From: a virus
Lineage: Duplodnaviria; Heunggongvirae; Uroviricota; Caudoviricetes
Virus record (IMG/VR): IMGVR_UViG_643348549_000020
DNA length: 64,000 bases
Reading direction: 5' to 3' (one strand)
Made by a program: the position numbers and the translations under genes. Shown piece after piece: positions 39,394-42,529 of the stretch. The first letter of the stretch is position 1. Every line of letters begins with the position of its first letter. The notes under the pieces were generated by a model, which worked only from the letters and a program-made list of their open reading frames with translations, did not search any database and was not told the origin of the DNA.

Positions 39394-39451
39394 TTTCTGG
39401 TGACGTTTGGCGGTATCAGTTTTACTCCGTGACTGCTCTGCCGCCCTTTTT
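39394..39451 (+). ncRNA. dicF: DicF small RNA (ftsZ-targeting sRNA) with its terminator hairpin and T-run
   Basis: TTTCTGGTGACGTTTGGCGGTATCAGTTTTACTCCGTGACTGCTCTGCCGCCCTTTTT matches the DicF sequence as I recall it; located between ydfC and dicB as in Qin. Confidence 0.6.
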
Positions 39452-39456
39452 AAAGT

Positions 39457-39600
39457 GAATTTTGTGATGTGGTGAATGCGGCTGAGCGCACGCGGAACAG
39501 TTAAAGCTAAAAACAGCGTTATGGGTGATTCTGTATTCCGGCGTTAATTGTTAACTGGTTAACGTCACCTGGAGGCACCAGGCACCACATCACAAAATTC
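39457..39600. repeat. Perfect 18-bp inverted repeat pair (GAATTTTGTGATGTGGTG / CACCACATCACAAAATTC) enclosing 108 nt between dicF and dicB
   Basis: Seen directly; would form a long double-stranded stem in the transcript. Confidence 0.6.
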
Positions 39601-39618
39601 ATTGTTGAGGACGCGATA

Positions 39619-39807
39619 ATGGAAACGTCACTACCAAACGTTAATACGTCTGAAGGGTGTTTTAATATTGGTATTCTGCTCAGTAACCGGGAGTTTACTG
39701 AAGACGCCATCAGGATGAGAAAATATGAGCCTTATCTTCTCAATGATAATTCCATACTCTCCAGAATTGCCCTTCTTGAACTTGGCATTTTCGGAGGGCA
39801 GCAGTGA
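39619..39807 (+). CDS. dicB: DicB-like cell-division inhibitor (62 aa)
   Basis: N-terminal LPNVNTSEGCF-IG...FTEDAI matches DicB; C-terminal half diverged. Confidence 0.65.
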   Translation: METSLPNVNTSEGCFNIGILLSNREFTEDAIRMRKYEPYLLNDNSILSRIALLELGIFGGQQ

Positions 39808-39992
39808 GTTCAGCGTTTGCACTGATGATGACGGTTTTTCTTATAACAGGTGAGCCACAGAATGTGATTACCGGAATTTATGCCAGTAAAGAATCCTGCC
39901 ATCAGGCAAGAGACGAGCAAAAAATTTCCGGTGAATGTCTCCCGTTAAACAAAGTATCGCTGTACCTGAATAACGAAATACCGGCTGGATAA
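39804..39992 (+). CDS. ydfD: YdfD-like small membrane/lysis protein (62 aa), GTG start overlapping dicB stop
   Basis: Hydrophobic N-terminus, conserved position after dicB. Confidence 0.5.
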   Translation: MSSAFALMMTVFLITGEPQNVITGIYASKESCHQARDEQKISGECLPLNKVSLYLNNEIPAG

Positions 39993-40084
39993 CCCGCCAG
40001 CCGTATTAACGCCATACCCGTTGATTAAGCATGCCAGCAATGGCAGGGATTCGTACAACCTTAAAATAGTTATGAGGTTTATCA

Positions 40085-42529
40085 ATGAGCACTGATAAAG
40101 AAGAAATTGCACTGTATTACGAAGCCAAAAATGACAAAGTCAGAAAACGCCTTGGGATTAAAGGCGGTTTTTACTGGCGCACAGCAAAAAAATTATCGGT
40201 TGCAATATCACGGGGTGTTGTCGCAATGGACGATGCTGGATTTGACGAAGAGGATTTCAAAAAACCTGTTCGCGTGAATTTGCCCATTGTTAATGACCTG
40301 CCGCCTGAAGGTGTGTTCGATACTGAATTCTGCAACCGCTATGAAAAAGGCGGGGAAGATGGCATCACAATGATATTTATAGCGCCTTCCCCCTCAGTTC
40401 AGGACAAACCAGCCAGCTCTGACAATACCAACGTCAATGGCGAAGACATGGCTGAGATTGAGGATAATATGCTCCTGCCGATTTCCGGTCAGGAACTGCC
40501 CATTCGCTGGCTTGCGCAACATGGCAGCGAAAAACCGGTAACGCACGTTTCACGGGAAGAACTTCAGGCATTACATATCGCACGAGCTGAAGAACTGCCT
40601 GCTGTTACTGCCCTGGCTATTTCCCACAACACAAAGCTGCTCGACCCGCTGGAGATTCGCGACCTTCACAAACTGGTACGCGACACAGACAAAGTTTTCC
40701 CTAATCCCGTTAATTCCAGTCTGGGGTTAATGACTGCTTTTTTCGAAGCATACCTGGACGCTGACTATACCGATCGAGGTCTGCTGACAAAAGAGTGGAT
40801 GAAAGGAAATCGTGTTTTACGCATCAGCCGCACGCCATCCGGCGCTAATGCTGGCGGAGGAATTCTTACCGATCGCGGTGAAAGTTTTGTCCACGATGAT
40901 GCGTCAGTAGAACGTGACGTTGCCGCTGGCGTTCTGGCCCGTTCAATGGACATCGATATTTACAATCCACATCCGGCACACGCCAAACGCATTGAAGAAA
41001 TCGTTTCAGAGAATAAGCCGCCCTTTTCTGTTTTTCGTGACAAATTCATCGCCATGCCTGGTCACCTGGATTATTCCCGCGCGATAGTGGTTGCGTCCGT
41101 GAAAGAAGCACCAATTGGTATCGAGGCTACTCCCCACCGTGTTACCGAATATCTGAACAAAGTACTGACCGAAACCGACCATGCCAACCCTGATCCAGAA
41201 ATCGTGGATATTGCCTGCGGTCGCTCCTCTGCTCCAATGCCGCAGCGTGTAACAAAAGAAGGAAAACAGGATGATGAAGAAAAACCGCAGCCATCTGGCG
41301 CAATGGCAGATGAACAGGCAACGACTGAAGCAGTGGAACCGGATACAACTGAACATAATCAGGACACGCAGTCGATGGATGCTCAGCCACAGATAAATTC
41401 TGTTGATGCGAAATATCAGAAACTGCGGGCAGAACTCCATGAAGCCCGGAAAAACATTCCGCCCCAAAATCCTGTCGATGCAGACAAATTACTGGCTGCC
41501 TCTCGCGGAGAATTTGTTGAAGGGATTAGCGACCCGAATGATCCGAAATGGATTAAGGGGATCCAGACCCGCGATTCTGTGTACCAGAATCAGCCAGAAA
41601 CGGAACAGAACGACCAGAAAGCGGAACAGAACAGCCCAAATACGCAACAAAACGAGCCAGAAACGAAACAACCTGAACCAGTAGTGCAACAGGAACCGGA
41701 AAAGATCTGCACCGCCTGCGGTCAGAGGAGTGGCGGCAACTGCCCTGATTGTGGCGCGGTGATGGGCGACGCAACATACCAGGAAACATTCGATGACAAG
41801 AACCTGGTTGAAGTTCAGGAAGACGATTCGGAGAAAATGGAAGGCGCTGAACATCCACACAAGGAGAATGCTGGCAGCGCTCAGGACCACGCCAGCGATA
41901 GTGAAACTGGCGAGACGGCAGATCCCTTAATTACGGTGAACGGTCATCGCATTATCACATCCACCAGCAGGACGTGTGACCATCTAATGATCGACCTTGA
42001 AACCATGGGAAAAAATCCTGATGCCCCGATTATCTCAATAGGTGCAATATTTTTCGATCCGCAAACCGGAGATATGGGACCGGAATTTAGTAAGACTATC
42101 GATCTGGAAACTGCTGGCGGAGTCATTGATCGGGACACCATTAAATGGTGGCTTAAGCAATCACGCGAAGCGCAATCTGCCATTATGACCGATGAAATCC
42201 CGTTAGATGATGCACTGTTACAATTGCGGGAATTTATCGACGAAAACTCCGGTGAATTTTTTGTTCAGGTCTGGGGAAATGGAGCCAACTTCGACAACAC
42301 GATTTTGCGCCGTTCATACGAACGGCAGGGGATCCCCTGCCCGTGGCGTTACTACAACGATCGCGATGTACGCACAATCGTTGAGCTGGGGAAAGCCATA
42401 GACTTCGATGCCAGAACGGCTATTCCATTCGAAGGTGAGCGCCACAATGCGCTGGATGACGCTCGTTACCAGGCAAAATACGTTTCAGCTATCTGGCAAA
42501 AACTGATCCCGAATCAGGCTGATTTTTAA
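40085..42529 (+). CDS. Large phage exonuclease (814 aa): RecE-like N-terminal region, acidic linker, C-terminal DEDDh 3'-5' exonuclease domain
   Basis: Exo motifs [29 protein letters not shown] in the C-terminal domain. Confidence 0.65.

Follow-up and report, generated by a model that had tools for sequence, protein, structure and literature searches.

In the Qin prophage of Escherichia coli K-12, a group of genes that inhibit cell division (dicF, dicB, and ydfD) is followed by a short gene, ydfE. A related locus lies at positions 39394–42529 of a 64,000-nt stretch of Caudoviricetes DNA, the IMG/VR record IMGVR_UViG_643348549_000020 (this whole stretch is called the window hereafter), where the last gene encodes an exonuclease of 814 aa. 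The initial annotation regarded the locus as the Qin-type module in an apparently intact prophage, with the full-length exonuclease of which ydfE is a truncated form. Two questions are raised by this locus: whether it is really this module, and what kind of enzyme the large exonuclease is. It was found that the module is of the Qin type, and that its exonuclease joins a RecE-like N-terminal part to a DEDDh domain resembling T4 DexA. We consider it very probable that the region as a whole is an early operon equivalent to the PL operon of lambda, which provides DicF, DicB, and YdfD-like functions together with a DexA-type exonuclease on a RecE scaffold.

The Qin-type module

The gene order ydfA-ydfB-ydfC-dicF-dicB-ydfD-exonuclease-xis-int and the gene orientation are the same in the window, in K-12 Qin, and in phage Tritos, and all open reading frames (ORFs) from ydfA to int are open. 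The four elements named in the initial annotation (DicF, DicB, the YdfD-like protein, and the exonuclease) were all found at the positions given there, with matches far above chance, which confirms a module of the Qin type.

The DicF small RNA (sRNA) is 53 nt long and is located at 39394–39446 (+), with a terminator hairpin and a U-run. The Rfam family RF00039 matched 39395–39446 (+) over the full model (positions 1–52) with 76.7 bits (gathering score 48; E = 3.6e-15). These 53 nt are 100% identical to K-12 dicF, and the agreement with K-12 is complete across 39382–39505. The ~190 nt upstream of DicF, equivalent to the RNase III precursor in K-12, are ~95% conserved and have a folding z of −2.5. 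The K-12 DicF pairs with the ftsZ mRNA in an Hfq-dependent manner and represses FtsZ synthesis (PMC5069750), and its regulation by DicA and Rem and its processing through RNases III and E are described (PMC10448788). Because the sequence is identical to that of the K-12 RNA, the DicF of the window would also repress ftsZ. Minus-strand ORFs occur between ydfC and dicF (39057–39392), where PGAP names a 165-nt 'hypothetical protein'. Since this stretch is the conserved DicF precursor, we take these ORFs as chance occurrences, and the call is probably spurious.

The dicB gene (39619–39807, +), which has a GAGGA Shine-Dalgarno sequence upstream of its ATG, encodes 62 aa. The ORF aligns with DicB, as the initial annotation had expected: both the Pfam profile PF05358 (115.7 bits; cut-off 27) and the NCBIfam profile NF049927 (102.2 bits; cut-off 100) matched over the full length (1–62 of 62). 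A clear contrast is seen between the two halves of the protein: 23 of the 31 residues at aa 1–31 are identical to K-12 DicB, while only 13 of 31 (42%) are identical at aa 32–62, so the C-terminal divergence from K-12 reported at the outset is real. At the DNA level, the window is 95% identical to K-12 Qin between 38450 and 39723, a limit that falls near codon 35 of dicB; because the K-12-like DNA ends there, dicB itself is a recombination mosaic.

A search of 5.8 billion proteins provided 131 DicB relatives, and the ones with a named source belong to E. coli, E. albertii, Salmonella, and Citrobacter; 18 of the 131 were aligned. Two C-terminal classes were found in this alignment: the K-12 type (...RELLNKICIVSMLARLRLMPKGCAQ) and the window type (...PYLLNDNSILSRIALLELGIFGGQQ). 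K35, I46, S48, and A51 are invariant among the 18 sequences, and the DicB of the window keeps all of the 22 invariant columns. Natural recombinants of both polarities exist: P0045 has the K-12-type N-terminal half and the window-type C-terminal half, and P0067 has the reverse. Of 5426 complete E. coli genomes, 1019 contain the window-type dicB-ydfD pair with a coverage of ≥80%. The divergence of the C-terminal half is one of two common allele classes and is ordinary. K-12 DicB blocks division through MinC, independently of MinD, and inhibits ManYZ-dependent phage entry (PMC6832061). By analogy, the allele of the window would bind MinC and exclude phages that depend on ManYZ.

The ydfD-like gene (39804–39992, +) encodes a putative small lysis protein of ~62 aa (DUF1482). 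Its GTG start, preceded by GGAGGG, overlaps the stop codon of dicB; the two ORFs, each with a Shine-Dalgarno sequence, are translationally coupled through this overlap. The alignment with K-12 YdfD proposed in the initial annotation gave 45% identity, with the hydrophobic N-terminus SAFALMMTVFLITG kept, and the family matches were clear (PF07358, 53.8 bits with a cut-off of 25; phrog_1092, E = 3e-33). K-12 YdfD inhibits IspG and thereby causes lysis (PMC8835842), and the protein of the window may, by analogy, act in the same way.

A DEDDh exonuclease on a RecE scaffold

The exonuclease gene (40085–42529, +; named 'exonuclease' by PGAP) encodes a protein with three parts: a folded head (aa 1 to ~390), an acidic and Gln-rich disordered linker (aa ~390–627), and a DEDDh domain. 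Pfam assigned PF06630 (Exonuc_VIII) to aa 56–189 and PF16473 (Rv2179c-like, DEDDh) to aa 633–804, the latter with 226.7 bits (cut-off 27; E = 2e-67). In an AlphaFold model based on 36 sequences, the predicted local distance difference test score was above 85 at aa 1–100, 120–385, and 633–810 and below 50 at aa 390–627. The DEDDh 3′–5′ exonuclease domain (aa 633–810; 41981–42514, +) contains the five catalytic residues D637, E639, D737, H787, and D792, all of which occupy invariant columns in the comparison with 23 stand-alone homologues (58–88% identity). The initial annotation had recognized this domain and had pointed to inactivating changes in the Exo motifs as evidence that would count against its reading; there are none.

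By sequence, the only solved relative of the domain is T4 DexA (8KEL/8KEN; profile E = 9.5e-16), and DexA was also the top Foldseek match (E ~2e-8; template modeling score 0.66–0.73 on the target), followed by RNase T and oligoribonucleases. The protein has the fold and the active site of the DEDDh DexA type, and its substrate and role are predicted from this likeness. DexA shares the catalytic residues with the window domain, while the identity between the two is ~21%; furthermore, the window domain makes up the last fifth of a protein of 814 aa, whereas DexA and its E. coli homologue EcD are stand-alone proteins of ~190–227 aa. Stand-alone DEDDh versions of 180–190 aa (58–62% identity) are common in Salmonella, Klebsiella, and Enterobacter.

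The likeness to DexA brings up a different role, namely defence of the 'HREX' kind: as an anti-phage nuclease encoded by the prophage, the domain would degrade the 5-hydroxymethylcytosine (5hmC)-containing DNA of T-even phages, spare the host DNA, and so benefit the lysogen rather than lytic growth of the phage itself. That DexA is the closest solved structure favors this role, as does the finding that EcD digests 5hmC-containing T4 DNA and protects cells (PMC12153337). The neighboring DicB also has a superinfection-exclusion role, and 1251 of the 5426 complete E. coli genomes keep at least 80% of the exonuclease gene at the DNA level. However, the sequence criteria of the HREX study do not point in this direction. 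For 5hmC recognition, they call for Trp at the position of DexA W152 and an acidic residue at that of D169 (PMC12153337), but the former position is Tyr757 in the window protein (Trp in most homologues), and no alignment of the D169 region was obtained. The position of D90, the loss of which characterizes the host-sparing dimeric type (PMC12153337), is still Asp ('IPLDDALL' as compared with 'VSTIDGIA' in DexA). In addition, the gene is placed in a repressed early operon beside xis and int, which is not a typical moron position, and PADLOC gave only a weak generic DEDDh match (E = 1.7e-5). Because the domain does not look like EcD by these criteria, the HREX role is kept as a minority rival, and we regard it as rather improbable.

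EcD itself was also searched for. The 189-aa PF16473 proteins obtained with a 17-mer from the EcD primers are not EcD: they are 37–39% identical to the window domain and have a different C-terminus. A 22-mer of EcD derived from the primers (EcD starts with MIDTET... and ends with ...TIPETYD) had no match in IMG/VR.

For the first 617 aa of the protein, the nearest K-12 relative is RecE of the Rac prophage. The RecE-homologous part (aa 58–617; 40256–41935, +) is 74.6% identical to aa 50–592 of K-12 RecE in BLASTP. The likeness covers the N-terminal scaffold, which has no recognizable solved fold, and the linker, where a zinc-ribbon-like CxxC-x7-CxxC motif (aa 542–556; 41708–41752, +) is aligned with CNACGQTGGDNCPDC of RecE in a region of low model confidence. 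The two genes also occupy the same slot relative to xis and int, and both lie near an FtsZ inhibitor (kilR in Rac, dicB in the window).

With this similarity, the 814-aa protein could be taken as exodeoxyribonuclease VIII (RecE) itself, the nuclease of a RecET-type recombination system. The Exonuc_VIII match and the identity to RecE are in line with this identification; close homologues bear this label in several phage records, and proteins of the ExoVIII type were listed as a recombination system in the survey of the O157 Sakai prophages (PMC2669165). Nevertheless, the similarity stops at about residue 592 of RecE, ahead of most of its nuclease domain (residues 564–866; PMC11611040). No PD-(D/E)XK domain (PF12684/DUF3799) was found in the Pfam scan of the window protein, and the NCBIfam RecE equivalog NF007259 gave 1091.5 bits, below its cut-off of 1269, over model positions 1–603 of 877 only. 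The C-terminal part of RecE is a PD-(D/E)XK 5′–3′ exonuclease for double-stranded DNA, and the next gene is recT; the window protein has at its end a DEDDh domain of the opposite, 3′–5′ polarity, and no RecT/Bet/Erf gene is annotated between the immunity region and int, either among the ORFs or in the identical prophage DNA. This domain content already largely refutes the identification, which we consider highly unlikely. Because the PD-(D/E)XK domain is replaced by a DexA-like DEDDh domain and RecT is missing, the label 'exodeoxyribonuclease VIII' is not supported and is a misnomer for this protein; the placing of 'ExoVIII-type' proteins among general recombination functions in the Sakai survey (PMC2669165) is not supported either.

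The family was represented by 36 sequences with a mutual identity of ≤50%. The Exonuc_VIII head is present in 31 of them, a DEDDh domain in 16, a PD-(D/E)XK domain in nine, and a fusion to RecT in one. Judging from this composition, the nuclease swap on the RecE scaffold is old and common. It is conceivable, although we hold it to be speculative and doubtful, that this scaffold is a general platform for nucleases of either polarity and that the annealase-free DEDDh form serves a non-recombination role, either HREX-like defence or anti-defence and scavenging of host DNA in lytic growth.

Relationship to K-12 ydfE and phage Tritos

The initial annotation assumed that K-12 ydfE is an IS-truncated form (IS, insertion sequence) of the large exonuclease and suggested aligning the two. 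This alignment failed. K-12 YdfE (306 aa), in which no Pfam domain was found, showed no homology to the 814-aa protein in pairwise alignment, tblastn, blastp, or Pfam comparisons, and the two heads are unrelated. What ydfE and the window gene have in common is 49 bp just upstream of both start codons and nothing else. This failure does not refute the relationship, because the homology begins beyond the part that K-12 retains. In the PHROG family phrog_2082 (823 positions), aa 1–257 of YdfE and aa 425–814 of the window protein match opposite ends. Full-length versions were found by tblastn in phage records, namely those of Tritos, HannyBb, PhiR42_1, Evi, mEp460_ev081, and the PPompW phages. YdfE aa 1–256 are 99.2% identical to aa 1–256 of the 823-aa exonuclease of Tritos, and this identity stops where IS2E starts in K-12. 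The window protein, in turn, is homologous to the Tritos exonuclease from aa 299 (aa 273 of Tritos) onward, with 64% identity and a nearly identical DEDDh domain; the head of the Tritos protein (aa 1–272) is of the YdfE type and unrelated to the RecE-type head of the window protein. The match to Tritos therefore bears out the claim that K-12 ydfE is what an IS has left of a large exonuclease. That exonuclease shared its slot and its tail with the window protein, and the head type remaining in ydfE is not that of the window protein.

Tritos (OV696610.1) is a deposited complete phage genome in which DicF is already annotated. It and its relatives HannyBb, PhiR42_1, mEp460_ev081, and Evi share the layout ydfABC-DicF-dicB-ydfD-exonuclease-xis-int with the window, but the Tritos DicB is the K-12 allele, whereas that of the window belongs to the other class. 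K-12 Qin resembles the window in the gene order and orientation, in ydfA, ydfB, and ydfC (95–99%), in DicF (100%), in the repressor/Cro architecture, and in the possession of a Rem homologue. It differs in three respects. One is the immunity (DicA and DicC are 57 and 71% identical, respectively). Another is that the second half of DicB (42%) and YdfD (45%) are of another allele class. The last is that the Qin exonuclease is cut by IS2 and xis/int are IS2-disrupted, while the window has a full-length exonuclease with a different head and intact xis and int.

Immunity region and proposed mechanism

Upstream of the module, a DicC/Cro-like regulator gene (37618–37845, −; P22_Cro, 63.6 bits; 70.7% identity to K-12 DicC; Cro/CI family regulator in PGAP) is divergent from the gene for a DicA-like repressor of 135 aa (37923–38330, +; HTH_3, 60.9 bits; 56.7% identity to K-12 DicA). 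The Pfam scan detected no S24 peptidase domain in this repressor, which carries a helix-turn-helix domain only; O157 Sakai prophages with peptidase-less repressors were not inducible by mitomycin C (PMC2669165). The genes ydfA (38520–38675, +), ydfB (38677–38805, +), and ydfC (38835–39053, +), with protein identities of 96, 95, and 98.6% to K-12, respectively, have DUF1391 and PHROG matches (38520–39053). A sigma-70-like sequence upstream of ydfA (38415–38443, +; TTGACC-17-TAAATT, 9 of 12 consensus positions) is a candidate equivalent of dicBp and has the position of that promoter in K-12 (position according to PMC10448788). A simple terminator scan did not pick up the DicF terminator, and neither the promoter scan nor the terminator scan was counted as evidence.

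The exonuclease gene is followed by an excisionase gene (42594–42842, +; Exc, 31.9 bits; also excisionase in PGAP) and a gene for a lambda-type tyrosine integrase (42820–43950, +; Arm-DNA-bind_1, 77.7 bits; Phage_integrase, 58.7 bits). A Rem homologue is encoded farther away at 31871–32122 (−; 71% identity and E = 8e-34 in tblastn with K-12 Rem). In K-12, Rem is the Qin antirepressor that relieves the DicA repression (PMC10448788). A hok/sok type I toxin-antitoxin locus (32490–32664, −, and ~32340–32495, −; sok RNA, 111.7 bits; hokD annotated in identical DNA) adjoins the Rem homologue and a DUF968 (ydfU-like) gene, and the same arrangement is seen in K-12 Qin.

Based on these features, we propose that the region is the early-left (lambda PL-equivalent) operon of a lambdoid phage of the Qin/P22-immC type, with ompW as its normal integration site. 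In the lysogen, the DicA-like repressor without a peptidase domain would hold the operon silent. As in K-12, derepression would most likely come from the Rem-like antirepressor, not from RecA-mediated cleavage. A single transcript would then run from upstream of ydfA through ydfABC-dicF-dicB-ydfD-exonuclease-xis-int. DicF would be freed by RNase III/E processing and would repress ftsZ and other mRNAs, as shown for the identical K-12 RNA. DicB would bring MinC to the division ring without MinD and block ManYZ-dependent phage entry, as the K-12 allele does, and the YdfD-like protein would act as a small lysis factor. The 814-aa protein would be a Mg-dependent DEDDh 3′–5′ exonuclease that most likely trims DNA 3′ ends in phage development, rather than a 5′–3′ recombination exonuclease of the RecE/RecT type. 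Among the matches listed, the 6.4-kb early region is at least 99.9% conserved in at least 25 genomes.

Several points weigh against this proposal. The expression of the operon is predicted; what is directly observed is the order of the genes, their assignment to families, in each case above the curated threshold, and intact ORFs and active-site residues. Sigma-70-like sites are no more numerous in the region than in shuffled sequences, so the promoter call amounts to a consensus match, and in K-12 no transcript past dicF was detected under the conditions tested (PMC10448788). The MinC and ManYZ effects were demonstrated for the K-12 allele of DicB only (PMC6832061), from which the C-terminal half of the window DicB differs at 18 of 31 positions; the YdfD-like protein is likewise only 45% identical to the K-12 YdfD that was tested. 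Finally, PF16473 is named after an exoribonuclease, and the Foldseek matches next to DexA are enzymes such as RNase T and the oligoribonucleases.

The possibility that the module is a decaying, functionless remnant, with its ORFs intact by recency alone, is very slight: although the portal gene in the flanking arm is frameshifted, the element is rearranged, and most O157 prophages are defective (PMC2669165), no ORF from ydfA to int is interrupted, DicF has the very sequence of the functional K-12 RNA, the catalytic residues do not vary, and the module occurs in deposited complete phage genomes and in about one-fifth of complete E. coli genomes.

The proposed early operon has functional parallels in lambda Kil and Rac KilR, which occupy the same early-left niche between the immunity and the recombination/int genes and also block cell division. 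KilR is annotated as an FtsZ inhibitor, and the mlrA-locus prophage of strain TW14359 has a 'cell division inhibitor' beside gam/bet/exo. However, Kil and KilR have no sequence relationship to DicB or DicF, and DicB works via MinC and DicF at the mRNA level.

The prophage around the module

Over all 64 kb, the window is colinear with E. coli O157:H7 strain TR01 (NZ_CP033605.1, from position 2889882), and by this colinearity its DNA is assigned to E. coli O157:H7. The two are effectively identical at 1–25000 and 37600–44000 and 99.7% identical elsewhere. The 122 differences over 17600–64000 fall into two patches only, at ~30–31 kb (39 differences, around the DUF968 gene) and at 45–46 kb (83 differences, within IS1). 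Clustered in this way, they suggest that paralogous copies of prophages or IS elements underwent gene conversion, or that the assemblies differ, rather than that the sequences diverged by point changes. On the identical DNA of TR01 and TW14359, PGAP names dicB, the DUF1482 protein, 'exonuclease', excisionase, and integrase at the same positions, and every gene of the module is already present in the RefSeq annotation.

The comparison with TW14359 clarified that the window is composite. For the prophage at the btsS/mlrA (yehV) locus, the left arm, which has the structural and lysis genes, corresponds to window positions 1–27471 with 99.8% identity. Positions 24181–44242 correspond to the late-regulatory and early arm of another prophage, which is located at ompW in TW14359, and positions 43994–64000 to the other arm of that ompW prophage, with an OspG-family kinase gene, IS1, and the genes from the tail fibre through the portal. 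In TW14359, the mlrA-locus and ompW-site phages are ~1.15 Mb apart, while in the window they are joined via a common lysis region of ~3.3 kb. At the junction (~43950–44250), the integrase gene is followed by an attP-like 126-nt fragment of the ompW 3′ end (43996–44121, −; 'OmpW family, incomplete' in PGAP for TR01) and then by the tail end of the same ompW-site phage; the same fragment is found at both prophage ends in TW14359. In TR01, what comes next in the series is the early region of the mlrA-locus prophage together with its integrase. The phage carrying the module thus appears to have its complete genome here, in circularly permuted order within another prophage, and its structural arm is found on the right-hand side of int. 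In the simplest reading, a circular copy of the ompW phage would have recombined into the resident mlrA-locus prophage through the common lysis region; alternatively, the permuted arrangement may be an assembly error.

The portal gene of the left structural arm (17427–18929, −) carries +1/−1/−1 indels at 17580–17627 as compared with the intact portal genes in TW14359 and in the second prophage. In this form, the gene is continuous with the ClpP-protease/major-capsid gene in one ORF of 1156 aa (15459–18929, −), and PGAP flags the identical gene of TR01 as 'frameshifted'. The indels may reflect either a true defect or an error in sequencing. An intact, plaque-forming lambdoid prophage has matching attL and attR, complete morphogenesis genes, and an inducible repressor, and the window does not present this combination: its prophage ends are unmatched, with the left end adjoining btsS and the int end adjoining the ompW fragment. 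The description of the element as an apparently intact prophage with complete structural genes must therefore be corrected, since the structural genes at 1–27 kb come from the mlrA-locus prophage, with a frameshifted portal, and the phage of the module is permuted.

The label 'Sakai Sp10' does not fit the phage of the module. The Sp10 attachment site is the Rac site (PMC2669165), while this phage carries an ompW fragment; its early region is held at ≥80% in only 38 of 5426 genomes.

Two further groups of features were noted in these arms. Just downstream of the crossover region, the sRNA AgvB (anti-GcvB of enterohaemorrhagic E. coli, EHEC; 27178–27239, +; 96.5 bits) lies back to back with STnc100 (27241–27433, −; 144.5 bits), beside a weak partial tRNA match (27519–27578, −; 37.3 bits; model positions 7–64), which PGAP calls tRNA-Met in TR01. 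At the tail-fibre end of the ompW-site phage, adjoining the attP-like junction, the OspG-family effector kinase gene (44974–45564, −; 196 aa; glycine loop GQGSTAEIF) stands beside the IS1 copy (45740–46440) and looks like a moron for an effector of the type III secretion system.

Occurrence and meaning of the module

That the prophages of O157:H7 harbor multiple dicBF loci has been on record since 2016 (PMC5069750), and, as cited in PMC6832061 and PMC10448788, four DicF copies of EHEC have been studied functionally. ExoVIII-type proteins were catalogued in seven Sakai prophages under general recombination (PMC2669165). It was remarked in 2016 that no sequenced phage had DicB or DicF, from which dicBF was considered to survive only in defective prophages (PMC5069750). 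In the current phage collection, 41 records match the region, and several annotate DicF, DicB, and YdfD; because present phage records carry the operon, that view is outdated. The operon is already known, ordinary, and common in E. coli, with the module and the exonuclease each present in ~20% of complete genomes. The peculiarity attributed to the module relative to the K-12 remnant holds as far as the full-length exonuclease and the open ORFs are concerned, but the module is not unusual, as deposited phages annotate it and the dicBF copies of O157 have been published.

The finding carries little weight as a discovery. Its meaning lies in the naming of this family: prophage proteins of this kind are common in E. 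coli and are often labelled 'exodeoxyribonuclease VIII' and counted as recombination functions. They have only the scaffold of RecE, combined with a 3′–5′ DexA-like nuclease, and their role is probably a different one.

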